50,780 nucleotides of DNA from a virus. Lineage: Duplodnaviria; Caudoviricetes. The stretch covers positions 1-50,780 of IMG/VR virus record IMGVR_UViG_3300026097_000031; one strand, given 5' to 3'. The position numbers and the translations under genes are program-made. The stretch's first letter is position 1. The number at the start of each line of letters is the position of its first letter. The notes under the pieces are model-generated. The model saw nothing but the letters and a program-made list of their open reading frames with translations, searched no databases and was not told where the DNA came from. Below, piece by piece: positions 1 to 50,780 of the stretch.

Positions 1-292
1 AGTTCTAGGCAAGTGCAGGCACATGCTCAGGTACAAGCACCCAAGAGTGTGAGCAGTTTGCGATCATGCTCAGGATCAAAGGCTAGGTATTCCCTGAGGA
101 CTCCTAGCAGTTATGTGAGCAGTTTCGACACATGCTCAGGTGCGACCTAGGCCCATCCACGGGTTAGCCCCAGGAACTTTTCAGGCAGTTGTGTAGCGGA
201 TGCCCAGCCGCAGCCCCGCACAGCAACCGTCCGGATGCCTGCGGGGAGAACTATCCCAAAAATCCAAACGAAAGACTGGACACTCTCGGCTT
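1..292. repeat. Left terminal overlap with 50522-50780 (circular or terminally redundant genome), with a variable internal allele
   Basis: 1-43 is identical to 50522-50564; 184-292 matches 50672-50780 with 1 mismatch; the intervening 44-183 and 50565-50671 differ. Confidence 0.92.
49..140. repeat. Palindromic repeat units GTGAGCAGTTT-N5-6-CATGCTCAGG
   Basis: Copies at 49-74, 115-140, 50490-50515, 50570-50596 and an expanded copy at 50515-50552 (its 3' part = 1-31); TGAGCA/TGCTCA arms. Confidence 0.85.
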
Positions 293-1330: not shown

Positions 1331-2667
1331 TTGATCTGCAACCAAACGTCGCCATCGCTGCCACCAGACGGGGCATCCGTAGAAACCGTGATGTTGCGCA
1401 TGCCCTTCTGCGAAGAAGAAGCCGAAGGTCCACCAGTTAAATCAGCCTTCTTGTACACGGCAGAACTCAACGCATTAACCGTGTTACCCGTATCCGTGAT
1501 CGTCGACTCATTCTCCAGAACCTTCGCGACAACATCCACGTTGTCAGCAATCAACTTCTGCTTCAGGTACACGACCTGGTCGAACGTTGCCGAACCACCA
1601 ACATGCAGCGGAGTTTCCGCAGCCTGACCATCCCGACCAATACTCACATTGTTATCGGAATCAATCTCCACCGTGCGAGTAGTCTCCGTACCAACACCAA
1701 GAGCCATATAGTCAATCGCGTTGATCGACAACCTGTCGCTGAACTTCGTCACCCACGCCTCAGTCCCCGCACCCTGGTGCGCGAACTTCACCATCGAAGC
1801 ACCATGAATCGTGTCACCCGTAGGTGACTGAACATCACCAGAGTTCACCGTCAACCCAGGACCCTCCGGATGCTGATCATTCGGACCGACACCCAGCAAA
1901 CCCATATCCGACTGAACCAAACCCAACGTCTGCGACGTTGAGTCATACGTCAACGGGGCATCAGCAGAGTTAATGCCAGCCGGGCCCTGCGGGCCCACAT
2001 CACCCTGCGGTCCACGCTGCCCCTGCGGCCCCGTCGGTCCCGTCGGGCCCGTGTCACCCTGGTTACCCTTCGGCCCAGGAACACCCTGCGGGCCCTCCGG
2101 GCCCTGCACACCACGGGGCCCCTGAGGCCCTGTCGGGCCCTCAGGACCAACCGGACCCTCCGGGCCCTTAATGTGCCCCACGTCCTCCCAAGAACCCGTA
2201 CCGTCCGTGACACCCCACGTGTACAAGTCACCCGGATCAACAACGTAATACGTGTCACCCGGCTGCATCCCCGTCATTTCCTGCAAATCAACCAGCGTCG
2301 CAACATGGCCGCGCATATAGATCCCAGGACCGATAGGTCCCCGTTGGCCCTGCTGACCCTGCGCACCAGTCGGGCCCACCGGGCCCTGCTCACCCGTGTC
2401 ACCCTTCGGGCCCTGCGGGCCCGTAGAACCAGGATCACCCTGCTTACCCTGCGGGCCAGTAGCCCCAGCCGGGCCCTGCTCACCCATTGGACCCTCAGGT
2501 CCAGCCGGGCCAGTAGCACCCGTAGAACCAGCCGGACCCTGCGGGCCGCGACCACCCTGAATGGCGGGGAACTCGCCCCGCTTCGACGGGTCCTTCAAAT
2601 CCTCAATGAACCCAACCCACTTGTTGTGTTCATCAATGTGACCGGACTGTCCGGGCTCAAACGTCAT
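1327..2667 (-). CDS. Collagen-like tail fibre protein
   Basis: Two long Gly-X-Y (GPQ/GPT/GAT) tracts; C-terminal [11 protein letters not shown] fibre motif. Confidence 0.88.
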
Positions 2668-3131: not shown

Positions 3132-4340
3132 TCAGCCGTTGGCGCAAGCCACGAGCAGACCAGCGTTGTTGTCGTACGTTTGAACGCCGAAAGTTCCGAT
3201 CCAACCCAGGCCAGCCAGGCGGTTGAACTTGTCAGTCGTCGGAGTGACAACGGTGTGCGGTTCCTCGACGACAACGTCGCCGATACCTTCCGCACCAAGG
3301 AACAGAATGTTCGCTCCGTCGGTAGGTGCAGCCTCGATGATGCTGTTCGCATCAGCGGGGATCTCGCCGCCCTTGTTCAGGCCACGGAACTGCGGCCCTT
3401 CAATGAAGCGGACACCCTCATACACGCCAACGGTTCCACGCCAAATTGGCTCGTTGGAATCGCGGTCGAGATGTGGGTACCTCCATCCAGCCACATCAGT
3501 TTCCTCACGCAGTTTGACTGCGATCTCCGGAGTGATGAACGCGTTGTACAACCCATCGGAGTACGGGGCGACACCAAGCGAACGCAGATGGGCGACGATG
3601 CGGCGAACCGAATCGGAGTCCAGCGACAGCAAAGTGTCGTTCGCGTAGTCAACAACCGCGCCACCACGGTGACCCGGCTTGATCAACCCGTGACCACCCG
3701 CATCCTTGAACATGAGGTCTTCCTTCATGTTCCCATCAGCGGTCAGAGTCGGATCACCCTTCGCGAGGATCTGCGCCTGACGGAAGCCACCATCAAGGAA
3801 GCCACCCTTCAGCGAGTACAGAGCCTCCATGTAGACAGCGTCAACCGTGTCCCGCATGTTGCGGCCCACGTACTCCGCCTGCATCGGGTTGATCTCCGTC
3901 CACGAGAAACGCTGCAACCTCTGCGTGACAACGGTGGAGTTGCCGTACTCATTGACGGTCACATCCAACTTGTCTTCCAGCGGCGGCAACGCAACCGCGT
4001 CCGGGTCCGCGTACTCAGACAGCGGAGTCTTAGCCAAACCAAGACCCTGCGCGCCCGTGCGGAACATCGACACGGTGCTGCCCGGGTAGGCAGCCTGATC
4101 GACCATCCGCACGTTGGAGAACTGGCGGTACATCGGCTCAAAGCGGAGCCGCCACCGGATCACCTTGTCGAAAGTGGCCTTAACAATAGCCATTTCGTTG
4201 TAGGCTGTGGTTGAACCAGCAGCCAAGTTAGTGTTGGGGGGGTTAACGGTTAGCGCACCGTCAACACCAACACCTGAAGCAGTTAGTTCCGGGCCGGAAC
4301 CAACACGCATGGAATCATTGAGATTCCCCTGGGCAGACAT
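3132..4340 (-). CDS. Major capsid protein (N4-gp56-like family)
   Basis: 402 aa with EYGN, LREET...W, GTVGVYEGVRFIE and DKFNR motifs; follows scaffold; RBS GGAAGGAGG. Confidence 0.88.
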   Translation of the reverse strand: MSAQGNLNDSMRVGSGPELTASGVGVDGALTVNPPNTNLAAGSTTAYNEMAIVKATFDKVIRWRLRFEPMYRQFSNVRMVDQAAYPGSTVSMFRTGAQGLGLAKTPLSEYADPDAVALPPLEDKLDVTVNEYGNSTVVTQRLQRFSWTEINPMQAEYVGRNMRDTVDAVYMEALYSLKGGFLDGGFRQAQILAKGDPTLTADGNMKEDLMFKDAGGHGLIKPGHRGGAVVDYANDTLLSLDSDSVRRIVAHLRSLGVAPYSDGLYNAFITPEIAVKLREETDVAGWRYPHLDRDSNEPIWRGTVGVYEGVRFIEGPQFRGLNKGGEIPADANSIIEAAPTDGANILFLGAEGIGDVVVEEPHTVVTPTTDKFNRLAGLGWIGTFGVQTYDNNAGLLVACANG

Positions 4341-4362
4341 GATCTGCCTCCTTCCATAAGGG

Positions 4363-4794
4363 TTAGCCGCCTTGCTTCAGGACCGCCATCAGTTCCTCCA
4401 TGTTCTCCGCCTGATCAATCCTTGTCATGATGTCCTGCGGAGGGAGACCCTGAGCGCCCTGCTCAACGGCGTTAATGCGATTAATTTCTGCAGCCGCAGG
4501 ATCTGCCTGCGGCTGGGTTGGCCCACCGAACACGTCGGCATATTCATTCAGCCAATCATCAAGAGCATCCGCCTCGATGTCCTTCGGAACGAACGCAGCA
4601 ATCTTCGGGTTTAACCCGCGCTGCTGAATGGATTCAGCGAGCGTCTGCTTACGCCGATCCGCCTCAACCTCAGCGAACTTACTAGCGAGTTCATCTCGCT
4701 CTTTCGTAAGTTCCTTGATCTTGGCACGCAACTTCTTCGGCAGGTCAGCCGAATCGTTGTCTTCATCGAACAATGCGTCGTATTCGTTAGACAC
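4363..4794 (-). CDS. Scaffolding protein
   Basis: Acidic N-terminus, coiled coil, GLNPKIAAFVP..WLNEYADVFG; immediately upstream of capsid gene. Confidence 0.78.
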   Translation of the reverse strand: MSNEYDALFDEDNDSADLPKKLRAKIKELTKERDELASKFAEVEADRRKQTLAESIQQRGLNPKIAAFVPKDIEADALDDWLNEYADVFGGPTQPQADPAAAEINRINAVEQGAQGLPPQDIMTRIDQAENMEELMAVLKQGG

Positions 4795-4844
4795 ATCAAT
4801 CACCCTTACTTCCATATCGTGATGGTTCGCCACACGTTCCACGT

Positions 4845-4920
4845 CCAGGGGAAGAGGTGGAAGAAGTGACTATCGGACTAATGACACCCACCGGGGCCGA
4901 CCGATCCGGTTGGGGAACTA
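4845..4920 (-). ncRNA. Putative structured leader RNA (H-type pseudoknot) upstream of the scaffold/capsid genes
   Basis: Stem CCCAACCGG/CCGGTGGG; loop ATCGG complementary to downstream CCGAT. Confidence 0.4.
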
Positions 4921-4935
4921 TGCGCCGTAGCGCTG

Positions 4936-5016
4936 TGGAGGTGGCGGGATTCGAACCCGCGTTCCAGGGTCTACCCTCGTGGGGTCTTGAACCCTGGTCG
5001 AAACCAATCCACCCCC
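4936..5016 (-). ncRNA. tmRNA-like RNA consisting only of the tRNA-like domain (no mRNA-like domain)
   Basis: 5' GGGGGTG-GATTGGTTTCGA (tmRNA-type stemless D-loop); acceptor stem GGGGGTG/CACCTCC with G3-U70 and A73; P2 CCAGGGT/ACCCTGG; T-arm GCGGG-TTCGAAT-CCCGC. Confidence 0.85.
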
Positions 5017-5024
5017 GGCCTGTT

Positions 5025-5792
5025 TTAACCGAACAGAATTTGTTGAGCCTTCGGACCCCAATCACCTGGGGTTGGAACATGCCACCCGTGGTCGGCCTGC
5101 CAATTGGCGACAGCCTTACGCGGGTAACTCTGGTGATATTTCACAGGTTCGCCGTGGAAATAGCCCAGGTCTTTCAACCGGCAAGCCAGCCGGTACGCAG
5201 CCAGGCTCTTCACGCCAGTCTGCTCAGCCTTAATGACGTTCTCGTATGCAGGCACTTTTCCATCCCAGTACCGGGACGGGTCATCGTTGCCATGCTGAAT
5301 ACCCTCAGAGTCAATCTTGTGCTTGCGGAGGAAAGACTCAACGTCCTTAACAGTTGTGCCCTTCTTCAACTCCCAATGCATCGGGTCATAGTTCGACCCA
5401 TGCCAGTCGCCACCCCAATTCACCAGATCGCCGTACTTGTTCTTCATGTAGGCAATACCACGGTGATGCTTCGGATGGTCACTATCGAAGAATGAGCGTG
5501 GCGCAGACATGGCACCCTCATGCGCCCAATCCAGATCAACGGCAGTACCGCTGGAATGGTTTGACCAGTTGCTGTTCAAGCGGGACTTGCGGTAGTTGTA
5601 GCCACCCTCATCCCAATGACCCCGGTCAATGCTGGTCACATGCTTGTCATAGTCATGCGCTAACGCTAGGAAAAACGGCAACACTTCCCGGCGGGTAGTC
5701 AGTTTGCGGTGGGTGCCGGGGATCTTCCCGGTGGCGAGCATGTCATGATCGCGTGGACCGATAACGCGCCAATTGTTTATTGACCTAGGCAT
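5025..5792 (-). CDS. Endolysin, peptidase M15 family with a C-terminal peptidoglycan-binding-like domain
   Basis: GGYNYR, SNHSSGTAVD, WGGDW and DPMHWE zinc-peptidase motifs. Confidence 0.88.
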   Translation of the reverse strand: MPRSINNWRVIGPRDHDMLATGKIPGTHRKLTTRREVLPFFLALAHDYDKHVTSIDRGHWDEGGYNYRKSRLNSNWSNHSSGTAVDLDWAHEGAMSAPRSFFDSDHPKHHRGIAYMKNKYGDLVNWGGDWHGSNYDPMHWELKKGTTVKDVESFLRKHKIDSEGIQHGNDDPSRYWDGKVPAYENVIKAEQTGVKSLAAYRLACRLKDLGYFHGEPVKYHQSYPRKAVANWQADHGWHVPTPGDWGPKAQQILFG

Positions 5793-10071: not shown

Positions 10072-11162
10072 TAGTACTCCAACTCGTTAATGACCTGCTG
10101 GAACGCATCCATGTAGGTGGTGGCTGCCGCATACTCACCAGCACCCTCCTGGCTTGCAGCCCACTTCTCAGCGAACAAAGTCGAATCGAAACCGCCAGTC
10201 TGCTCACTCGTCGACGTAGTACCCGCCTGGGAGCGGACACCCTTCGTCACCGTCTCCACCGGGTTGAACCGTTCATTACGGTTCAACTGCTTCACAAACT
10301 CCTGGATCTCACGATCAGACGCACGACGACCAAGATACGAAGCAAGCGAATCGTTCAAGATTCGCTCCGCCGTTGAAGCGTTCGTCAAGTTCAGGCTCTT
10401 CGAAACGTTCGTGAAAGCCTGCGGGCCGACACCACCAGCACCATTCGTGGCACCGCTGCCGCCGTTGCTTTGCTTCACCAACTTCCGCAAAGCCTCCTGC
10501 ACGCTTTCACCCGTGACAGCCGCCATCTGCACCGCATCCCGGAACGCGCCACGAGCCATAGCAGGGGTCACCTGATCGGTTCCCATCATTGCTTTAGCGG
10601 CAGAGTACGAAAGTTCCTCCACGCCTTTACCGGCAACGTCACCGAACGGACCCATCGCTAGCAGGTCACCCTGCGAAACGAAATTGTTTAAACCACCAGG
10701 TGCATACGCGTCACCAGACCCGAAAATGTTTCCATCTTTGCCGCCCTGGAAACCTTCAACGGAAGCCTCAATCTTGACTTTCTGAGTGGGGTTGTACTGC
10801 CCTGGCAGGTATCCCCCGGACGAAGACTGATTAACACCCTGCGCTGCTTCATCTTCCGCAGACGCTTCGTTTAAAGCAACCTCTGCGTCATCCTCACTCA
10901 TCGAAGGCAAATTCTGGCTACTGTTACCGCCTTGACCGTCGCGTGGTGTCGGAGTTCCCTCCACACTATTCGGGTTCTCCTCCGGGCCGTTAGCACCCAT
11001 GAACCGGCCAGTTGGTTGCGGGGGACCATTAGGCACCCGCACCATCTCCACGGCACCAACCGGGATACGACTCCCATCAAGATTGTCAATAGTCGGATCC
11101 GTCGGAGAAGACTCGTAAGCCTTGTTCCCATTATTGGGATCAATGTAGTAAATGTCAGCCAT
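10071..11162 (-). CDS. Internal virion protein
   Basis: 363 aa; YLGRRASDREIQEF motif; coupled to its neighbours. Confidence 0.6.
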   Translation of the reverse strand: MADIYYIDPNNGNKAYESSPTDPTIDNLDGSRIPVGAVEMVRVPNGPPQPTGRFMGANGPEENPNSVEGTPTPRDGQGGNSSQNLPSMSEDDAEVALNEASAEDEAAQGVNQSSSGGYLPGQYNPTQKVKIEASVEGFQGGKDGNIFGSGDAYAPGGLNNFVSQGDLLAMGPFGDVAGKGVEELSYSAAKAMMGTDQVTPAMARGAFRDAVQMAAVTGESVQEALRKLVKQSNGGSGATNGAGGVGPQAFTNVSKSLNLTNASTAERILNDSLASYLGRRASDREIQEFVKQLNRNERFNPVETVTKGVRSQAGTTSTSEQTGGFDSTLFAEKWAASQEGAGEYAAATTYMDAFQQVINELEY

Positions 11163-22078: not shown

Positions 22079-23845
22079 CTATCCGATAGGTGCTTGCCGT
22101 AACGTCCGAACCGACGTTCCAGCGTTCCCACCCCCGGTAAGGGAGGCGAGCATCTGCTGCATGCCAGCAGGATTAGGGGCCCCACCCAAACCAGCGGCAC
22201 CCGGAGGCGCGCCGTCACCAGGAGGCGCAGGCTCACCCGGGGCAGGAACATCCGGCTCAGGTTCGGGTGGGGCAAAAGCAACCTCAATGGCCGCTTCAAT
22301 AGGAACACCCTTCTTACGCTGATCAATAAGCGATTGGACAGCCATCACAACTTTTTCTGGGTCTCCACCCTCAACAGCCATCGTGGGGATCGCTTGCGCA
22401 TAACCAGCGACAGCCTGCAAAGCAGACTCCCGCAGGCGTTCCACATCAATGACGCGCTCCTCTTCAAGCACGTCCATCTGCACCGGAAGATTCCGACGCA
22501 AATAAGACTTCGAAAACAAACCAGCACCCAAACCTTGCAAACCCCACACCAGGGCACGGTTCGGATCCAAACCAGCCATCACGCCATACTCAGCGGTCAC
22601 GCCACGCTCACCCTTAATAACATCCTTCGGGGTGTAACGCAGTTTGTACGGCGTACCATTCGTCACCGACGAAACCTCTTTACGCGTCGACGGCCACACC
22701 TTCTCATCCAACTCCAGGCACATCGACAACGCTTCCGCCATCGCATCACCCAACATTGATTGAGCAGTCTTAATCCGCTGATCAAAACCACCCATCAACG
22801 CCTGCACGCCACGACCAGTCACCACACTTGAATCGATCTGGCCAGCGCGAGCGTCCGGGAAACGAGAACCGAACTTCAACTCCTCATCAAGTTTGTTCTC
22901 CGTGATAAGTGAAGCCTGCGGCAAATCAAGACTGACCCTGCGGATACGTTCCGGAGTTTGAGAACGGAGGATCGCATCCGGACCGAAAGCCATCTCCTGT
23001 ACGTCTTGGGGGAGCGCTATTGGTGCTTCGACTGCTTTCTGGGTTGCCTCCAGCGAAAGTAACGCAAGTTTTGCTTTCGCTGCGAAAACCCACAGCACAT
23101 CATCAAAAGATCCACGCGGACTGTCATCGAGTGTGGGTCTTCCAGCAATAACAACAGGGATACGGTCGAGGCGGTTACCTACTGTGGAAAGAACAACTGC
23201 GTCTTCATCTGCGATGACGAGTCGTTCCGCTTCTTTATCCCAGTAGCGGATCATTTTGATCATGGGGTTTTCTTCGGTGCCCCATTCGCTTCGGCGTTCA
23301 AACCTGTAGGCATGTTCCGGGAACATTGCTGCTAGTTCGTTAGCGCGGCGGGAGAACACTCGCAGATAAGAGGTGAGGTTCCCGAAGCGGTCTTTAGTGA
23401 AGTAGGAACCCATCGGGTTGTCGAACTGCAGGTAGGGCGCTTGTGCCGTGTAGTCGGGTTCGACGCGGATGGGGAGGAATCCGTAGGTCATCATGCGGTC
23501 TGCGGCTTGCACGATGCGTGTTCCCAGCCGGGAGTGGTACACGTAATAGTTGATTATTTTGGTGAGTTTGTCGGCGCGGGAACGTCGTGATTCGTCCAGG
23601 ATGGAGTCGCCTGCTGCGGAGAATGTGGGCAGGGTGCCGATGGATTCGGCGAGGTCTTGGGCGACGACATCGATGGTGTTGGCGACGATGGGTTGCGGCC
23701 ATTCGCTGGGGAAGAGGGAGCCGTATAGGGCGCGTGCGTTGCCGGTGCGGACGAGTTGGACGGCACGCATGCGTGCGTCACGGTCTACGTTTTCACGTTC
23801 TAGGCGGTGCGACAGTTCGACCACGTCTTGCGCAGTTTCAGCCAC
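22079..23845 (-). CDS. Portal (head-tail connector) protein
   Basis: 588 aa directly after terminase; VANTIDVVAQD and TGRGVQALMGGFD motifs; Pro-rich C-terminus. Confidence 0.85.
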   Translation of the reverse strand: MAETAQDVVELSHRLERENVDRDARMRAVQLVRTGNARALYGSLFPSEWPQPIVANTIDVVAQDLAESIGTLPTFSAAGDSILDESRRSRADKLTKIINYYVYHSRLGTRIVQAADRMMTYGFLPIRVEPDYTAQAPYLQFDNPMGSYFTKDRFGNLTSYLRVFSRRANELAAMFPEHAYRFERRSEWGTEENPMIKMIRYWDKEAERLVIADEDAVVLSTVGNRLDRIPVVIAGRPTLDDSPRGSFDDVLWVFAAKAKLALLSLEATQKAVEAPIALPQDVQEMAFGPDAILRSQTPERIRRVSLDLPQASLITENKLDEELKFGSRFPDARAGQIDSSVVTGRGVQALMGGFDQRIKTAQSMLGDAMAEALSMCLELDEKVWPSTRKEVSSVTNGTPYKLRYTPKDVIKGERGVTAEYGVMAGLDPNRALVWGLQGLGAGLFSKSYLRRNLPVQMDVLEEERVIDVERLRESALQAVAGYAQAIPTMAVEGGDPEKVVMAVQSLIDQRKKGVPIEAAIEVAFAPPEPEPDVPAPGEPAPPGDGAPPGAAGLGGAPNPAGMQQMLASLTGGGNAGTSVRTLRQAPIG

Positions 23846-23929: not shown

Positions 23930-25804
23930 TTACGCGTATGTGGTTTGTTGTGTGAAGATTTCGTCTAGGTCGACGGTGTATTGGCGTTCCCGGTCCCCTT
24001 CGGAGCGGAACGGGTTCGCTGCGAAAGTGGCGCGGCCGGTGGATCGTGATGCGACCTCACGGGCGCGCAGTTCACAAAACCATAAAGCCATCACCGTGTC
24101 GCATTTGCGTTTCCGTGCTGGGATCTCCGGGTTCCAGGACACGAGTTCTTCGACGAGAACTTTCACGCCGTAGTTCTGTGTTGATGGCAGGTTGATCAGG
24201 TTGTCGCCTTGGTGTTTTTTTGTTCCTTGCACGGTGGCGGTTGATCCGAACAGTCCAGCCATGGATGCGACCCCGAATTCTGGGTCTTGCTTGTTGTTGC
24301 TGGTGTGGTGTGGTTTCACGACGATTCCCCGGTTGGCCATGTATTGGCCGATTTCCTCGTCGTACACGAGGAACCCTTGGAATGCGTTCGATTCAATCAC
24401 CCACTCTTTCGGCTGATATATCTCTGTCATGGAGTAGATCAGTTCGCGGATTTGCGCTGGGGTGGGGCCGGAGAGCACTTTCACGTCGAGTACGTATCGT
24501 TCCCCGGTTTGCCGGTCGATGCTGTAGGCGACGGCGGCGGTGTTCCCTGAGACCGCTGGGTCCATTCCGCATACGACATAGTGGCGGTCTGTTCGCTGCG
24601 GGTGCCCTTTCAGGTTCGCGTTCAACGGTCCCGCTTTGCGGTATCCGTTGACGGAGCCGTTCACGGCGACAATGTCGAACGTGGCATCTTCGGCTATCGG
24701 GTTGTTCATGTAGACGAGGGACCATTTCTTCGCCCCGACCTCGTTGCGGACGCGTGCTAGGCGCGGGCCGGTCCAGCGGGGGTAGCGTCCGTTCTCGTCT
24801 GGTTCGTCGTTGTCGGCGAAGGGTTCATCAGCGACGGGCCACAGCGTGACCCAGTCTTCTGGTTTCTCTTTATATTCCAGGACTGCTGGCATGGACAGGT
24901 ATGTCCATGGCACGACTCCGTCGGTGTAATGCACCGGGTTGGTGAGTTCGCTGTACAAATCGACTGGGGCGACGCGGGTGCCGACGACGAGGAGTTGCCC
25001 TTTGGGGCCTAGCCGGGTGGCTACTTCCTGCACTAGCCATTCGCGTTGCCGTTCATGTTCGCCAGCGTTGGACAGGGTGACTACGTCGTCGAGGATGATC
25101 AGGTCGGCGCGGGCTCCGTAGATTTGGCTGGCGAAACCGATGGCTTCCAGGCTGGGGTCTTTCGCGTCGGTGTCGCGTTCTAGGTAGATCTTGTTCGCGG
25201 ACCATTGCTCAGCGGTCGCCCGGAACCCGTCTGCGGGTCCGAAGGCGACTTGCATGTTCGCGTACCGGGGATGGGTGAGTCGTTGTTTCACCGCGTACAC
25301 GATTTTGCGGGCTAGGTCCGCTGACTTCGAAATGATGATGACGGCAGCGTCGGGGTTCTTCAGGAGGGTGTAGGTGACGTAGCCGATGCTGATCGACATC
25401 GTCTTCCCATGGTTCGGCGGCACGTTTATGATCACGCGTTTGCTGCCGGAAGAACCTTCCTCATACGTCATCGACGGGTGAAGGAAACCAGGCGAGTCCC
25501 CGTTCAGAATGTCGACCACGTTCTGCATGTGCGGGTACACCTCGTTGCCCAGGTACTCAGCGGAGAACGCGGAGAACGACGGCATGTCCAAGTCCTGAAG
25601 GGACTTGTCTTTCTTCTGGGAGCGGATCTGATCGATCAGTTCCGCCCAGTCTTTGTTCTTCCGCCGCTGCTCCTCATACCAGGATTGTGAACGCCCAATA
25701 ACTTCAAGAGCGTTTTTGATGAGGTAGCGCTGACGCATCAAGTCAGCGAACTCATCCCGGAGTTCCTCCGGGGTGCGCATGTCGCGAGGTTTGAAATTAG
25801 CCAC
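23930..25804 (-). CDS. terL: Terminase large subunit (with N-terminal helical extension)
   Basis: Walker A PPNHGKT, GARADLIILDD Walker B, VGTR coupling motif, GMDPA nuclease, DTVMALW; GTG start at 25804. Confidence 0.93.
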   Translation of the reverse strand: MANFKPRDMRTPEELRDEFADLMRQRYLIKNALEVIGRSQSWYEEQRRKNKDWAELIDQIRSQKKDKSLQDLDMPSFSAFSAEYLGNEVYPHMQNVVDILNGDSPGFLHPSMTYEEGSSGSKRVIINVPPNHGKTMSISIGYVTYTLLKNPDAAVIIISKSADLARKIVYAVKQRLTHPRYANMQVAFGPADGFRATAEQWSANKIYLERDTDAKDPSLEAIGFASQIYGARADLIILDDVVTLSNAGEHERQREWLVQEVATRLGPKGQLLVVGTRVAPVDLYSELTNPVHYTDGVVPWTYLSMPAVLEYKEKPEDWVTLWPVADEPFADNDEPDENGRYPRWTGPRLARVRNEVGAKKWSLVYMNNPIAEDATFDIVAVNGSVNGYRKAGPLNANLKGHPQRTDRHYVVCGMDPAVSGNTAAVAYSIDRQTGERYVLDVKVLSGPTPAQIRELIYSMTEIYQPKEWVIESNAFQGFLVYDEEIGQYMANRGIVVKPHHTSNNKQDPEFGVASMAGLFGSTATVQGTKKHQGDNLINLPSTQNYGVKVLVEELVSWNPEIPARKRKCDTVMALWFCELRAREVASRSTGRATFAANPFRSEGDRERQYTVDLDEIFTQQTTYA

Positions 25805-25832
25805 GAAGTCTTCTTTCCCATCTGGAACCAGA

Positions 25833-25865
25833 GCGACGCTCCGGGGAGCCGGAGCGGAGCGTCGC
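25833..25865. repeat. 33-bp palindromic element (11-11-11), copy 1
   Basis: GCGACGCTCCG-N11-CGGAGCGTCGC; inverted copy at 42202-42234 with 1 mismatch. Confidence 0.85.
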
Positions 25866-26547
25866 CCCCGAAGTAGTCGAACCCGGAAAGGTTCGACAAT
25901 CAGCCAGGAGAGAGTTCCCTGCTCTCGACTGGCACCGCGTCGGTCTACCGACCGACTAGTAGTCGAGATAGGCATCTCGACAACACCGCCTTGTCCCCCG
26001 CCTGGGGGACAAACCGGACAAAGATACACCCCTGGCCTATATGAGGGACACCAAGGACTACGTAAGTAGGACTTGGTGGCCCTTCCAGGCCTTGCGGCCC
26101 TCCAGGGCCTACGTAGTGGAGCGAGTAGCGCCGCTCGCATCTAGGCGATGCTCGCTCCGTAGTGAGCGCTCTCACTACTAGTGAGCCCTCTGCAACCGCT
26201 TACATAGTCACGTTGCACGGCGTTTCACCCCCCACCGTTACCAAACCGTTACCAAGAACCCCCCGTAGCCCAACTAAACCCAGCCACCCAGCCACCACCC
26301 CCACCAAGGACCAAACAGCAAAATTTACCGGGGGATGGGGGTGTAGGGGGGCGCGCCGCCCCGCAAACAACCGGGGGTCAAACGTCCTAGTTTGTCCGAA
26401 TTTGTCCCGATTCGTGGTTACCGGGGCAACCGTGCTTCGCAATCGACCCGGGACCCCCCCCGGGGGGTGAGTCGGCAGACTCACTCACCCTGCCCTCGTG
26501 GCTTATGGGGGTGCTGTGTTGGGCCGGGTGGCTGCTGTGTATGGCGG

Positions 26548-42239: not shown

Positions 42240-42671
42240 TTACTTCGCTGGCCGAATTGGCGGATGCAGCAGATCACCTTTGCGGCGGGTTCGATACACG
42301 AACCCGTCCGGATCGTCGTACACATAGTCAACGACGGCGTTGTTATCTTCCAGCCGTTGCAGCCACGAATCCAATCTTTCGTTCTGCTCGCTGGTTAATT
42401 TCTCGCCCGCATCGCGGCGGGCGAGATACCTAAGCATCGACAGCGGGTAAGCCCTAGCATGGTCTGGTCGAACAGGGGACCAAGGCACATGCGTCTCGTA
42501 GCGGATCCGGCTGGTCAGCCCAGCCCTGGAAAGGGCTGCGGCTATCGCCGACTTAGACACCTCAACGTTGTCTTGTTCTTTCACCCGGTCGACCATCTGC
42601 TGATGGGTCAAACCTTCTTCCTGCCAGCGTTCCAGAATGGAATCGCTAGGCAGCAATCGTTTTGCTGGCAT
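42240..42671 (-). CDS. Immunity repressor-like protein (cluster A type), paralogue 2
   Basis: LTHQQMVD..SAIAAALSRAG; VPW..H..MLR..RLDSWL..NAVVDY..GFVY; divergent from the integrase. Confidence 0.78.
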   Translation of the reverse strand: MPAKRLLPSDSILERWQEEGLTHQQMVDRVKEQDNVEVSKSAIAAALSRAGLTSRIRYETHVPWSPVRPDHARAYPLSMLRYLARRDAGEKLTSEQNERLDSWLQRLEDNNAVVDYVYDDPDGFVYRTRRKGDLLHPPIRPAK

Positions 42672-42825
42672 GGCGCAGCCTCCCTTCGTAATGTTTGTAA
42701 CAAGACAGTACTAGTTTGGTTTAACAGAATCCACTTCTGTCACGGTCATGACCGATCCATGACCAAATCATGTCCGAATTATACCCATTTGCACCACGTC
42801 ATGGTTACCGTTAGAACGCATGACA

Positions 42826-42860
42826 GGTTCTTGCAATCACCATCAGGGTTAATGTATTGT
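42826..42860 (+). promoter_or_regulatory. Integrase promoter overlapped by the 13-bp operator-like motif
   Basis: GGTTCTTGCAATC (reverse complement GATTGCAAGAACC); TTGCAA-18-TATTGT. Confidence 0.5.
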
Positions 42861-42893
42861 TCCCAACAACGCCAACACAGAGAGGAACACACG

Positions 42894-43898
42894 ATGAAAC
42901 TGGAACCTGCCATTCAGGGGTACCTGGCCTACCGTGCTAACGGCTGGTCAGCGTCCACCGTCCGGGGCGACAAGAAAGTCCTCGCCAAACTGCTCCGCCA
43001 CACCGGCAACGTGCAACTGGCATCCATCACCCCAGAGGTGATGGATGAACTGCTGCGATCCAAGCCGATGTCCGGTGGCTCACCAGCCACCTACAACCTG
43101 TACCTGTCCGGGCTGCGGAACTTCTTCAAGTTCTGCCGCCAACGCAAACACGCACCCATCGACTATGACCCGCTGGTTGGGCAACGCCCAAAGCCGAACC
43201 CTGAGAAACCAAAATTCCGTATCACGATGGATCAGTTCCCTGCCTTGCTGGATGCGGCTGGGAACGAACGTAACCGGATGGCTATCGCCATCGGGTTGTA
43301 TCTGATGGTTCGCGAAAGCGAAGCCCGCAGCATCCGGCTGGGTGATGTGGATCTGAACGAAGGCACGATTGCTGTGTGGGTTCACAAGACGAATGGGTAT
43401 GACGAGATGCCGATCAGCGCTGAGTTGGATGCTGAGTTGCGTCGATACCTGGTGTGGTACACGCAGCATCATGGGCCGTTGAAGGATGACTGGTTTCTGC
43501 TACCCCAACGCAAATTCACAAACCGGTTCCAGGTTTACGAACTGGCACCGTCGAGGGGACTGCAGCAAGGTGGCCTATCCCGTGTCGTACAACAGGCCGT
43601 AGGAGCCCTAGGACACCCCACAGCGGGCGTAGGAATGCACACCCTTCGCAGGTCCGCCGCTGCCGCCCTGTTCCAGGAGAAGACGCGTCAGGGCTACGAC
43701 GGGGCACTCAGGCAAGTGAGTGCCTGGCTGCATCACAAGTCGCAGCGCACCAGCGAGATCTATATCGGAATCGATATTGATCGCAACACTCGCAATGAAG
43801 AAACAAAGTCTCAGTCGCTGTATCCTTCACTCAACGACGACAAGGTTATAAATCTAGGAGATAAGCACGATGGCAGTAATTCCAACCAGGCTGTGTGA
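42894..43898 (+). CDS. int: Tyrosine integrase/recombinase
   Basis: Catalytic R (VRESEA), K (HKT), HTLRRS, LHH, Y (EIYIG); RBS GAGGA. Confidence 0.9.
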   Translation: MKLEPAIQGYLAYRANGWSASTVRGDKKVLAKLLRHTGNVQLASITPEVMDELLRSKPMSGGSPATYNLYLSGLRNFFKFCRQRKHAPIDYDPLVGQRPKPNPEKPKFRITMDQFPALLDAAGNERNRMAIAIGLYLMVRESEARSIRLGDVDLNEGTIAVWVHKTNGYDEMPISAELDAELRRYLVWYTQHHGPLKDDWFLLPQRKFTNRFQVYELAPSRGLQQGGLSRVVQQAVGALGHPTAGVGMHTLRRSAAAALFQEKTRQGYDGALRQVSAWLHHKSQRTSEIYIGIDIDRNTRNEETKSQSLYPSLNDDKVINLGDKHDGSNSNQAV

Positions 43899-49773: not shown

Positions 49774-50137
49774 GGATCTCCTCTTTCTGTTGCTACGGTT
49801 ATTCAGTTGTCATCTACGGGTTATGCGTAATTCCGCATAACGTGGCTTTATCCGCAATATGTGGTAAAACACATAACCGGCGTGAACCTGCCGATAGTGT
49901 TTAGGCAATACTCAGGGATACAAACGTGATACGAGATCGTGAGGATTTACTAAACACCCAACGTCAGCCTCGAAGAATCGCACCTACTGGCCTCGCATTT
50001 ATCCACAGTCACCTGAATAGAATCCAGTTGAGCACGACTGAGCATGACTTTGTTCCGGTTCCATTACGCGACGCAAGGTAAGGGAACAGTCACAGCGCAT
50101 GTCCACGAACGGCGACATTCACCCGAATGTCTGCGTT

Positions 50138-50293
50138 CTAAGACAATCTCCGCAACGTCCACAATGTTCGACCCACCCACACATCCAGAGTGTGCCTGCC
50201 ATGTAGCGACCATAATTGCCATCCATGCTGGCTGGTTTGCGCAGTACGTCGAATCAAATGCCAGTTGCCTAGCGTCCAGTCTTTACGGTTCAT
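50138..50293 (-). CDS. Small Trp-rich ORF in the variable locus
   Basis: 51 aa; ATGA-coupled to the upstream ORF; RBS GGAG. Confidence 0.45.
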   Translation of the reverse strand: MNRKDWTLGNWHLIRRTAQTSQHGWQLWSLHGRHTLDVWVGRTLWTLRRLS

Positions 50294-50424
50294 GGCAACT
50301 CCATTTCTTGCGCCAACCTGGTCAGTTCCCTCGCAGCCAGATCGTGACTGCATGGACGGCAGCCCTCATACTTCGTGTGATGGCAGTCGGCGTAGATCTC
50401 CGCTATCTGTTCATCCATCCCCAT
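50290..50424 (-). CDS. Small Cys/His ORF in the variable locus
   Basis: 44 aa; RBS GAAGGAAGG. Confidence 0.45.
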   Translation of the reverse strand: MGMDEQIAEIYADCHHTKYEGCRPCSHDLAARELTRLAQEMELP

Positions 50425-50521
50425 GGCCTTCCTTCTGTGACCACGCCACCTGAACCGACAGTTCTTCATCGGCAGCGTGGAACGTTTGGGTGAGCAGTTT
50501 GGGCACATGCTCAGGTGAAGC

Positions 50522-50780
50522 AGTTCTAGGCAAGTGCAGGCACATGCTCAGGTACAAGCACCCAGGTCGGTGAGCAGTTTCAGGACACTTGCTCAGGTGT
50601 CAATACACAACCCACAAGAGGTTGTGTGGGTGAACAGCCAAGTACTCCCGGAGGATTCTTGGCAGTTAGTGGGCAGTTGTATAGCGGATGCCCAGCCGCA
50701 GCCCCGCACAGCAACCGTCCGGATGCCTGCGGGGAGAACTATCCCAAAAATCCAAACGAAAGACTGGACACTCTCGGCTT
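50522..50780. repeat. Right terminal overlap with 1-292, alternative allele
   Basis: Same matches as the left end; includes the last 42 nt of the 251-1330 fibre gene. Confidence 0.92.

Follow-up and report, generated by a model that had tools for sequence, protein, structure and literature searches.

The window analysed here, 50,780 nucleotides (nt) long, is the whole IMG/VR virus record IMGVR_UViG_3300026097_000031 (Caudoviricetes), which overruns a full circle. At both of its ends lies an array of short palindromic units and interleaved hairpins, placed between a tail-fibre-like gene and an operon of small genes. Based on sequence comparison, the unit is an H-type RNA pseudoknot of about 30 nt on the gene-sense (minus) strand, and this knot represents a widespread, uncatalogued family of phage gene-end elements. 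To account for the two ends, we propose that the assembly of a temperate-phage genome, circular or circularly permuted, has wrapped around and captures two co-existing haplotypes of one knot cluster, and that the knots would act as roadblocks on RNA and as sites of recombination. Taken as a whole, this explanation stands at an even balance in our judgment.

The repeat unit folds as an H-type pseudoknot

Viral contigs were scanned with an exact pattern of 21 conserved letters, and the family counts given below rest on such exact-core scans and on the loci selected through them. In gene sense, the variable bases flanking CCUGAGCAUG are complementary and form the first stem (S1), with at least three consecutive pairs in 92 of 110 distinct exact-core instances. 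In the gap-free alignment A2, which holds the 90 of these 110 instances that have a 5-nt gap, the three loop-adjacent S1 pairs are formed in 90/90, 89/90, and 73/90 rows and include four Watson-Crick types. None of 500 shuffles reaches the observed score for S1 pairing, and sliding the partner by 1–3 columns lowers the pairing from 86% to 21–40%. The invariant closing pair consists of the first C and the last G of the 10-mer, and the loop is thus 8 nt long (CUGAGCAU). S1 measures 4–5 base pairs (bp) with a C-G closing pair, and the consensus of the 8-nt loop is CUGRGCAU.

The second stem (S2) is formed by six loop bases (UGAGCA), which pair with UGCUCA (consensus UGCYCA) behind an A-rich ..AAAC linker. 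In A2 this stem is invariant by the design of the scan; hence, copies with up to four mismatches were sought in the fetched loci without any pairing rule. S2 is altered in 55 of the resulting 194 distinct 42-mers. Counted at the level of pairs, two-sided changes keep the pair in 9 cases and break it in 1, and one-sided changes are kept as G.U in 34 cases and break the pair in 31, the breakers lying, by eye, mostly at the two end pairs. Alignment A3 comprises 100 of the 194 rows, namely every one of the 55 altered in S2 and 45 of the 139 unaltered, and its proportions are not population frequencies. In A3, both-sided changes occur at four of the six S2 pairs (UGGACA/UGUCCA, UGAACA/UGUUCA, UGAGUA/UACUCA, and UGGGUA/UGCCUA are matched versions), and the inner four pairs are unpaired in 3 of 400 cells. 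Additionally, AAA is invariant in the linker of all 100 rows, and the next C is present in at least 90%. Since each of the 34 G.U cells in S2 would turn into an A.C mismatch on the opposite strand, the fold belongs to the gene-sense RNA.

With its S1 of 4–5 bp, single-base first loop, 6-bp S2, and A-rich last loop, the unit has the geometry of a compact classical H-type knot. A structural scan of 1.51 Mb of loci found 205 such knots and none in the shuffles of these loci. In the window, the same scan found six knots, at 50–78, 116–143, 182–211, 50491–50517, 50571–50601, and 50670–50699, every one of them on the minus strand and within the two ends, and 10 shuffled windows gave one match in total.

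These pairings bear on whether the units might instead be sites on DNA, that is, operators, iterons, packaging sites, promoters of a phage polymerase, or attC- or CRISPR-like sites used by the integrase. The core is palindromic, the units cluster at the start of an operon, and the rearrangement breakpoints lie at units, as such sites might have it. However, the variable stem inside the spacer of the palindrome covaries with bases outside it, the G.U pairs fit one strand only, and gene orientation and stop spacing are kept in unrelated phages. Moreover, no sigma-70-like promoter was found in either window end, and no T7-type RNA polymerase gene was found in the window, a negative of little weight because the control of that search gave no signal in any genome. 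We consider a DNA-level role highly improbable and retain the RNA pseudoknot.

Layout of the array in the window

Based on these scans, on folding, and on matches to the model R1, the two ends of the window contain the following features, in which S2b denotes the partner strand of the loop.

214–246 (left) and 50702–50734 (right), minus: long imperfect hairpin CCCCGCA...UGCGGGG right behind the stop codon (folded)
182–211, minus: knot U0, left copy; S1 GCGG/CCGC, loop CUGGGCAU, linker ..ACAAC, S2b UGCCUG (structural scan)
50670–50699, minus: knot U0, right copy; S2b UGCCCA (structural scan)
144–181, minus: hairpin private to the left end (haplotype A); it also follows U0 in 18 of 57 metagenome contigs
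116–143, minus: knot A2, haplotype A only; R1 match 109–150, 40.2 bits (structural scan)
82–108, minus: hairpin module, haplotype A copy, GCUAGG..CCUAGC
50–78, minus: knot A1; R1 match 43–84, 44.6 bits (structural scan)
1–35, minus, truncated by the contig start, with a right copy at about 50516–50557: degenerate knot; partial R1 matches 21–32 and 50542–50553
50637–50663, minus: hairpin module, copy of the right end (haplotype B), GCCAAG..CUUGGC
50605–50627, minus: hairpin private to haplotype B, ACACAACC/GGUUGUGU; terminator-like match
50571–50601, minus: knot B, loop CUGAGCAA; R1 match 50564–50607, 18.2 bits (structural scan)
50491–50517, minus: knot closest to the operon, lying 65 nt upstream of its ATG (50425); R1 match 50484–50525, 41.7 bits (structural scan)

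U0 is a variant knot, with UGCCCA or UGCCUG as the partner of its loop, and is added here to the four units of the first-pass annotation. Knot A1 occupies the position of knot B and differs from it in S1. In the degenerate knot, the linker is long, S2b contains a single bulged U, and the 3' strand overlaps with S1 of the following knot. The spacing of the units is irregular, at 37–80 nt from start to start.

The palindromic unit described in the first-pass annotation was recovered as TGAGCA-N9-13-TGCTCA, with four copies in the window, all of them in the two ends, against 0.02 expected from 100 shuffles. The many AACTGC motifs that it reported are likewise enriched (58 in the whole window, read as GCAGTT on the plus strand, against 24.9 expected), and 9 of the 58 lie in the ends. 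It had also described a hairpin module that covaries between the two ends, and this module is real: between the A and B copies, two of the six outer pairs are changed on both sides (U-A to C-G and G-C to A-U on the minus strand), and a third version, GCCAGG/CCUGGC, is present in the metagenome contig L185. Both of the private modules that it named exist as well; the one at 50605–50627 covaries, and the left one spans 144–181 and not 141–183.

Similar compensatory changes occur in the other hairpins. The outer stem of the long hairpin is found in metagenome contigs as CCCCGC/GCGGGG, CCCACA/UGUGGG, and CCCUGC/GCAGGG; an exact 20-mer of this hairpin matched no viral contig. The private hairpin of haplotype A shows the paired changes CCUGG..CCUAGG, CCUAG..CCUGGG, and CCUAC..GUAGG in metagenome contigs. 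In the private hairpin of haplotype B, contigs of sequencing runs combine 50610 A>G with 50622 T>C and 50611 C>G with 50621 G>C. The description of the array as hypervariable with a conserved structure is borne out by these results, as the hairpins keep their pairing through two-sided changes and the forms differ among contigs.

The two ends represent two haplotypes

The record is classed as linear by IMG/VR, and its CheckV completeness estimate is 100%. Comparison of the window ends shows that 1–43 equals 50522–50564 exactly, as the first-pass annotation had it; the second flank that it called identical, 184–292 and 50672–50780, is 99% identical and carries a single mismatch (193 G, 50681 A). 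The exact common tail of the two ends is 194–292, which equals 50682–50780 and measures 99 nt. The sizes that it gave for the differing middles were reproduced at 44–183 (140 nt, left) and 50565–50671 (107 nt, right), and these two stretches are barely alignable. We refer to the left end of the record as haplotype A and to the right end as haplotype B; they contain five and four knots, respectively. As the genes at both ends lie on the minus strand, reading the record as a circle yields one intergenic region, from the stop codon at 253–251 to the start codon at 50425, and every unit of the window sits in this gap.

An exact tail of 99 nt past the last variant base is what a graph assembler would leave at the end of a bubble branch. 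Because the left shared flank measures just 43 nt, the assembly graph probably broke inside the repeat cluster at this end.

Both forms recur in independent contigs of public runs and metagenomes, which upholds the earlier two-allele reading. Logan contigs from four runs (X1, X2, X3, and X6) were compared with window 50000–50780. In the soil run X1, haplotype B is present exactly over 50535–50680 at a depth of 17.3, and another contig, on the shared stretch 50492–50564 at a depth of 28.7, has 37 unmatched letters before the match and stops at the fork after 50564. In the lake run X2, a contig identical over 50490–50564 continues into haplotype A sequence. Run X3 has an A-like right junction and a contig that jumps from 50489 to 50570, which represents a deletion between two knots. 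Finally, in the metagenome contig L227, 50126–50515 (92% identity) is joined to 49–83 with knot A1, then to a hairpin, and then to U0. Since L227 thereby connects the small genes of the right end with knot A1 and U0, it confirms the circle.

Could the difference between the ends be an artefact of assembly, that is, a chimera of unrelated reads or a mis-called true terminal repeat? The linear class of the record, the short left flank, and read evidence that comes entirely from contigs would all be compatible with this. In contrast, both forms are found again, identical or nearly identical, in independent runs and metagenomes, L227 bridges the circle, and the right overlap stops exactly 99 nt past the last variant base, in the manner of a graph branch. 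An artefact is thus very unlikely in our assessment, and we proceed with two co-existing haplotypes.

Variability of the array and recombination between units

The exact U0 core is present in 57 metagenome contigs, with at least six different sequences right behind it. The sequence that follows is A-like in 18 contigs, a different hairpin in 18, and the third version of the module hairpin followed by knot A1 in 6; a ribosome-binding site and a gene follow at once in 5, another form in 4, and a B-like sequence in 1 (L196), and 5 contigs are singletons. Furthermore, 45 of the 57 contigs end within 300 nt of the U0 core. The number of knots also differs, with one in L183 (U0 alone, followed by a window-like leader), two in L227, and three in L185. 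Modules thus vary in order and number among the relatives, as the first-pass annotation expected.

At 50672–50740 (equal to 184–252), the summed contig depth reaches 6605 in X1, 1462 in X2, 163 in X3, and 837 in X6, against tens to hundreds beside it, so that a peak is present in all four runs. Over this stretch, the first knot and the long hairpin recur in very many different contigs of the soil and lake runs.

Haplotypes A and B have their breakpoints at the 3' edge of U0 and directly past ..AAACUGCUCAC of knots A1 and B. Because these breakpoints fall at repeated cores, recombination there is the simplest source of the variety, and we infer that short-homology recombination between unit copies accounts for the rearrangements. 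The earlier proposal of recombination at the palindromes is supported insofar as the breakpoints lie at the repeated units; nothing links the rearrangements to the integrase. The sole integrase match is an ordinary phage-type tyrosine integrase about 7 kb off, in a window that was not scanned for cas or integron genes. The candidacy of this enzyme as the recombinase, raised in the first-pass annotation, is not supported, and ordinary recombination between repeats suffices. Likewise, the comparison of the unit with attC or CRISPR repeats was dropped. There is no regular repeat-cassette structure, the spacing varies as given above, and the unit is an RNA pseudoknot that is mostly single in more than 100 unrelated phage contigs.

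Spread of the knot family

The exact core occurs in at least 119 viral contigs, which are otherwise unrelated and mostly AT-rich, and among the matches listed, the units are single in at least 117 of 119 viral loci. It also occurs in 29 prokaryote contigs, with one exact match each. These carriers include several Saccharibacteria, one of them a complete chromosome with the knot between two hypothetical genes beside an ABC transporter, and a Polaromonas prophage with the knot behind the Mu-type major head gene. Among cultured phages, three records were searched with model R1, namely Paracoccus phage ParMal1, Mycobacterium phage Labelle, and Erwinia phage Berlingot, and each of them gave one copy. 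When one instance was compared with cultured phages by BLAST, 97 weak matches were obtained, which were not assessed record by record. The Synechococcus cyanophages S-RIM4 and S-EIVl are BLAST matches only and have the same gene-knot-gene layout.

Several individual carriers deserve description. In the Saccharibacteria contigs L128, L132, L140, and L151, the exact core lies between conserved hypothetical genes of 129 and 176 amino acids (aa); in L140, an ABC transporter and an HxlR regulator adjoin, and no phage gene was found among the six open reading frames (ORFs) scanned. In a Bacteroides metagenome-assembled genome (L131:6512–6538), an exact copy falls within the final codons of an AAA_15/AAA_21 ATPase ORF, which in turn overlaps the following gene; such a placement is unusual for the family. 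The knot of Erwinia phage Berlingot (L171:1700–1980, record 4123–5643) lies in a 1.5-kb stretch without annotated features, with several tRNA-like T-arm sequences downstream by eye. An AT-rich viral contig (L112:7400–13700) carries at least seven knots within 6.5 kb; behind four of these, the leader starts in the same way (UACUCA or GACUCA), and three of the four share a longer leader without a Shine-Dalgarno sequence (..CAACUCAAC..), which looks like a repeated knot-plus-leader cassette.

Rfam 15 was searched at E up to 1 with six sources of 52.8 kb in total and at E up to 10 with window 50430–50780 (351 bases), and no match covered the knot in either case. A literature search on the core strings and on phage pseudoknot and ribozyme terms returned no description of the element in phages among the titles and abstracts listed. 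Sigma-54 promoters, N4-type hairpin promoters, boxA/nut sites, and preQ1-I riboswitches were considered by eye against their consensus motifs and set aside for a misfit in spacing or sequence.

Such breadth would also suit cleavage of polycistronic phage transcripts between their genes, either by the knot itself as a self-cleaving ribozyme or at the knot as a specific RNase processing site. About 20 of some 30 positions are conserved across phages of very different hosts, as an autonomous RNA might require, and the knot sits between genes and before tRNAs. However, no ribozyme family is among the Rfam matches for the 351 bases, and the element is only about 30 nt long and has no further helix. 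We know of no natural class of self-cleaving ribozyme as small as the knot. Cleavage at the knot is accordingly an unlikely explanation.

Placement of the knot relative to genes

Among the 186 instances with an upstream ORF, the stop codon lies 7–13 nt before the closing C in 79, and the distance peaks at 8 nt (28 instances), with only 4 instances closer. Consistent with this, a stop triplet starts at position −11 in 49 of 194 instances, against 3–27 at each other position between −30 and −3. TAA makes up most of the stops (80/115). Downstream, an ORF starts within 0–39 nt in 83 of 124 exact-core instances, and 24 of 206 knots lie within 15 nt before a tRNA; this link comes mostly from one lineage, as 22 of the 24 are tRNA-Asp in one group of large phages. 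In the 80 cases with long gaps, the knot is near the upstream stop in 36 and near the downstream start in 12. The six bases behind the knot are poor in G (4–10%). As the upstream proteins fall into 67 clusters and the downstream proteins into 81, no single partner gene stands out.

A gap of 8 nt between the stop and the closing C means that S1 begins 5–6 nt past the stop. In the footprint of the bacterial ribosome, this distance corresponds to the mRNA entrance when the stop codon is in the A site. The knot may therefore be placed as near to the stop as possible without being unwound by the terminating ribosome.

The same placement could mean that the knot acts on the ribosome at the upstream stop, holding or blocking it, insulating genes, preventing read-through or sliding, or recoding. 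The sharp peak at 8 nt and the position of S1 at the mRNA entrance speak for such an action. Moreover, knots of the coremin type block scanning ribosomes and stimulate −1 frameshifting in vitro, according to two papers (PMC10520033, PMC10321173). Nevertheless, the stop is at the exact place in just the 49 of 194 instances, the distances of 8, 9, 12, and 13 nt put the knot in different frames, the dominant TAA is not leaky, and 64 of the 186 knots are more than 40 nt from the stop, in addition to those that precede tRNAs. An action on the ribosome itself is therefore improbable, and we return to a roadblock that the ribosome leaves folded.

Comparison with known systems

The nearest described counterpart of the phage knot is coremin (xrRNA-C) together with xrRNA-WCC, its Watson-Crick variant in which three loop bases are paired with the spacer. 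Coremin consists of a 4-bp hairpin, a YGAD or YG..AD loop, an 8–10-nt spacer with UUAAAC, and a required second hairpin (PMC10520033); such elements stall Xrn1, block scanning ribosomes, and stimulate frameshifting, and they are carried by beny-, cucumo-, picorna-like, and other eukaryotic RNA viruses in 3' untranslated regions (UTRs) or intergenic regions, with one natural WCC example 8 nt past the last ORF (PMC10520033, PMC10321173). The likeness extends to the short first hairpin, the first loop base C or U, the single bridging pyrimidine, the A-rich spacer holding ..UUAAAC.., and the compact H-type knot formed by antiparallel loop-spacer pairing in the WCC form. It also includes the 3' UTR or intergenic site and the one WCC case at 8 nt, and may include a following hairpin that is often kept in structure only. 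The phage knot shares the A-rich feature through its invariant AAA, and its pairing of the loop with the 3' strand is backed at four of six pairs.

In contrast, S2 of the phage knot is 6 bp and not 3, and its loop is 8 nt (CUGRGCAU). The second loop base is U in 100/100 A3 rows, which fails the YG..AD rule. Moreover, the second hairpin that coremin needs is not general behind the phage knot. In the U0 lineage, a hairpin of −5 kcal/mol or better follows in 23 of 31 distinct sequences, but the wider family has no such excess of structure. The hosts also differ, being bacteria, and the carriers are DNA phages and a few bacterial chromosomes. Because the loop rule fails, S2 has 6 bp, and the second hairpin is not general, we do not file the knot as a coremin member; it shares the coremin design and would at best be coremin-like in action.

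The luteoviral and retroviral frameshift pseudoknots of beet western yellows virus and simian retrovirus 1 (BWYV, SRV-1) share with the knot its size, the one-base first loop, and the A-rich last loop for minor-groove contacts, as well as a spacer of about 5 nt from the A-site codon (PMC10321173). However, the phage knot has no upstream slippery sequence, the codon at that position is a stop, mostly TAA, and there is no consistent frame to the next gene.

Type III antitoxin RNAs (ToxI, CptI, and TenpI) are repeats of an H-type pseudoknot with an A-rich stretch (PMC12283969). In contrast to these, the knots of the window are not arranged head to tail, only small genes and no toxin-like gene lie beside the array (toxin families were not searched), no bacterial arrays are present among the 29 prokaryote matches, and phages mostly have a single knot. 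In type III arrays, the head-to-tail repeats precede a terminator and a gene for a ToxN-like endoribonuclease, and in phage copies the number of repeats can change. We did not assign the array to this class, given the lack of head-to-tail repeats, the downstream genes of 45 and 51 aa, and the single-copy prokaryote matches. The resemblance is relevant to a further reading, which takes up the small decoy RNAs of the first-pass annotation and in which the array yields small decoy or sponge RNAs, like antitoxin repeats or anti-defence RNAs, whose copy number is selected. The two stems, the A-rich stretch, and the H-type fold would fit (PMC12283969), and the number of knots differs between haplotypes. 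However, none of the 29 prokaryote matches is in a tandem array, no toxin-like gene appears in the few contexts annotated, the knot of most phages is single and tied to a stop codon, and the spacing in the window is irregular. Decoy RNAs are consequently quite improbable, and the roadblock remains our preferred role.

Repetitive extragenic palindromic (REP) sequences, bacterial interspersed mosaic elements (BIME), and T4-type promoter-stem-loop cassettes are likewise short intergenic repeats with a structure of their own, which stand at gene ends, interrupt assemblies, and mark mosaic junctions. The knot resembles them in these respects, and 45 of the 57 U0 contigs stop near it. It differs in being a pseudoknot of conserved sequence across phyla rather than a host-specific hairpin or promoter.

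Genes around the array

The genes that frame the array, together with those that mark the phage, are as follows.

251–1345, minus: tail-fibre-like gene, 364 aa, with a weak PHROG match to a minor tail protein; its stop at 253–251 precedes the array
1327–2667, minus: collagen-like tail-fibre gene, preceding the tail-fibre-like gene
3132–4340, minus: capsid gene
22079–23845: portal gene
23930–26140: terminase gene
42459–43898: tyrosine integrase gene, matching phage integrase families only, about 7 kb from the array
50290–50425, minus: first small gene of the operon behind the array, 45 aa when read from its ATG at 50425

The array thus lies directly downstream of the tail-fibre-like gene, which the first-pass annotation had called receptor-binding. 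On its other side, L227 continues from its two-knot array into a leader and a small gene as at window 50290–50425. The 133-aa neighbour protein has no relatives that were found, and the window contains no tRNA. A minus-strand ORF of 3282 aa at 11155–21003 matches phrog_10618 (function not known) over its last third only and has no Pfam family. At window 50321–50439, a commoner relative in X1 (depth 174 against about 27) has 75 other letters in place of 117 nt of the small-gene region.

The contig L196 matches window 1342–1481, and L182 matches 1342–1374; both match again at the long hairpin and the first knot, and BLAST is blank over 251–1341. Because the match is lost between 1342 and the hairpin with the first knot, the tail-fibre gene 251–1345 behaves as an exchangeable cassette, whose downstream bound is the conserved hairpin and knot. 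We also noted that the match over 1342–1481 has 98.6% identity and that the unmatched stretch in relatives measures roughly 840–1200 nt.

Proposed role of the knot and points that weigh against it

In the mechanism that we propose, the small pseudoknots would form a tandem cluster transcribed with the minus-strand genes, among interleaved hairpins that vary in sequence and keep their structure. Each knot would be an RNA roadblock behind a stop codon, as close as a terminating ribosome permits, and would shield the adjacent message from exonucleases or other machines that travel on RNA. The repeated cores of 20–30 nt may double as short homologies at which knots and hairpins are added, removed, and reshuffled, and recombination at these cores may also exchange the upstream tail-fibre cassette. 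The role as roadblock or gene-end cap, which draws on the analogy with coremin, is tentative and falls somewhat short of an even chance. A broader version is doubtful. In it, a knot of coremin design would be common to the phages of most bacterial phyla as a gene-end roadblock that works universally and independently of the host, and the soil and lake lineage would have amplified it into a hypervariable tandem array that also serves as the downstream homology arm in swaps of receptor-binding tail-fibre cassettes.

Several points weigh against these proposals, in addition to the second loop base and the second hairpin discussed above. To our knowledge, bacteria have no Xrn1, and enterobacteria have no RNase J, yet an Erwinia phage carries the knot. 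In the 194 canonical instances, the 30 nt behind the knot show no excess of structure over shuffles (mean z −0.13), and about 20 conserved bases exceed the need of a plain protective structure, so that a specific partner or catalysis is possible. The S2 covariation was counted at loci selected for holding one canonical copy, and none of the listed sequencing runs is on record as RNA. Similarly, the haplotype evidence consists of assembled contigs and not of reads, and since the run comparison used 50000–50780, haplotype A was seen there only by contig continuation. Finally, the nearest IMG/VR relative, L153, has no array: its synteny with the window is limited to the part from 48898 downwards, and genes are tightly packed where the array would be. 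L153 is the closest of the relatives found via the phrog_7578 protein, whose 16 loci contain no knot, and BLAST of the right end of the window against cultured phages gave no match.

Biological meaning

If a mechanical roadblock is true, the knot would be a prokaryotic-virus counterpart of the exonuclease-resistant RNAs of eukaryotic viruses, and we know of no earlier one. It would also represent a very small portable part with which messages could be stabilised or insulated, and a recurrent, uncatalogued, conserved element of phages would be explained. For genome recovery, the knot breaks metagenome assemblies (45/57 contigs) and can give false 'linear' calls for complete genomes. Moreover, the array is an example of how elements of this kind multiply and are reshuffled. 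Close relatives differ in the tail-fibre cassette, whose 3' edge is marked by the conserved hairpin and the first knot; this bears on the exchange of host range modules.

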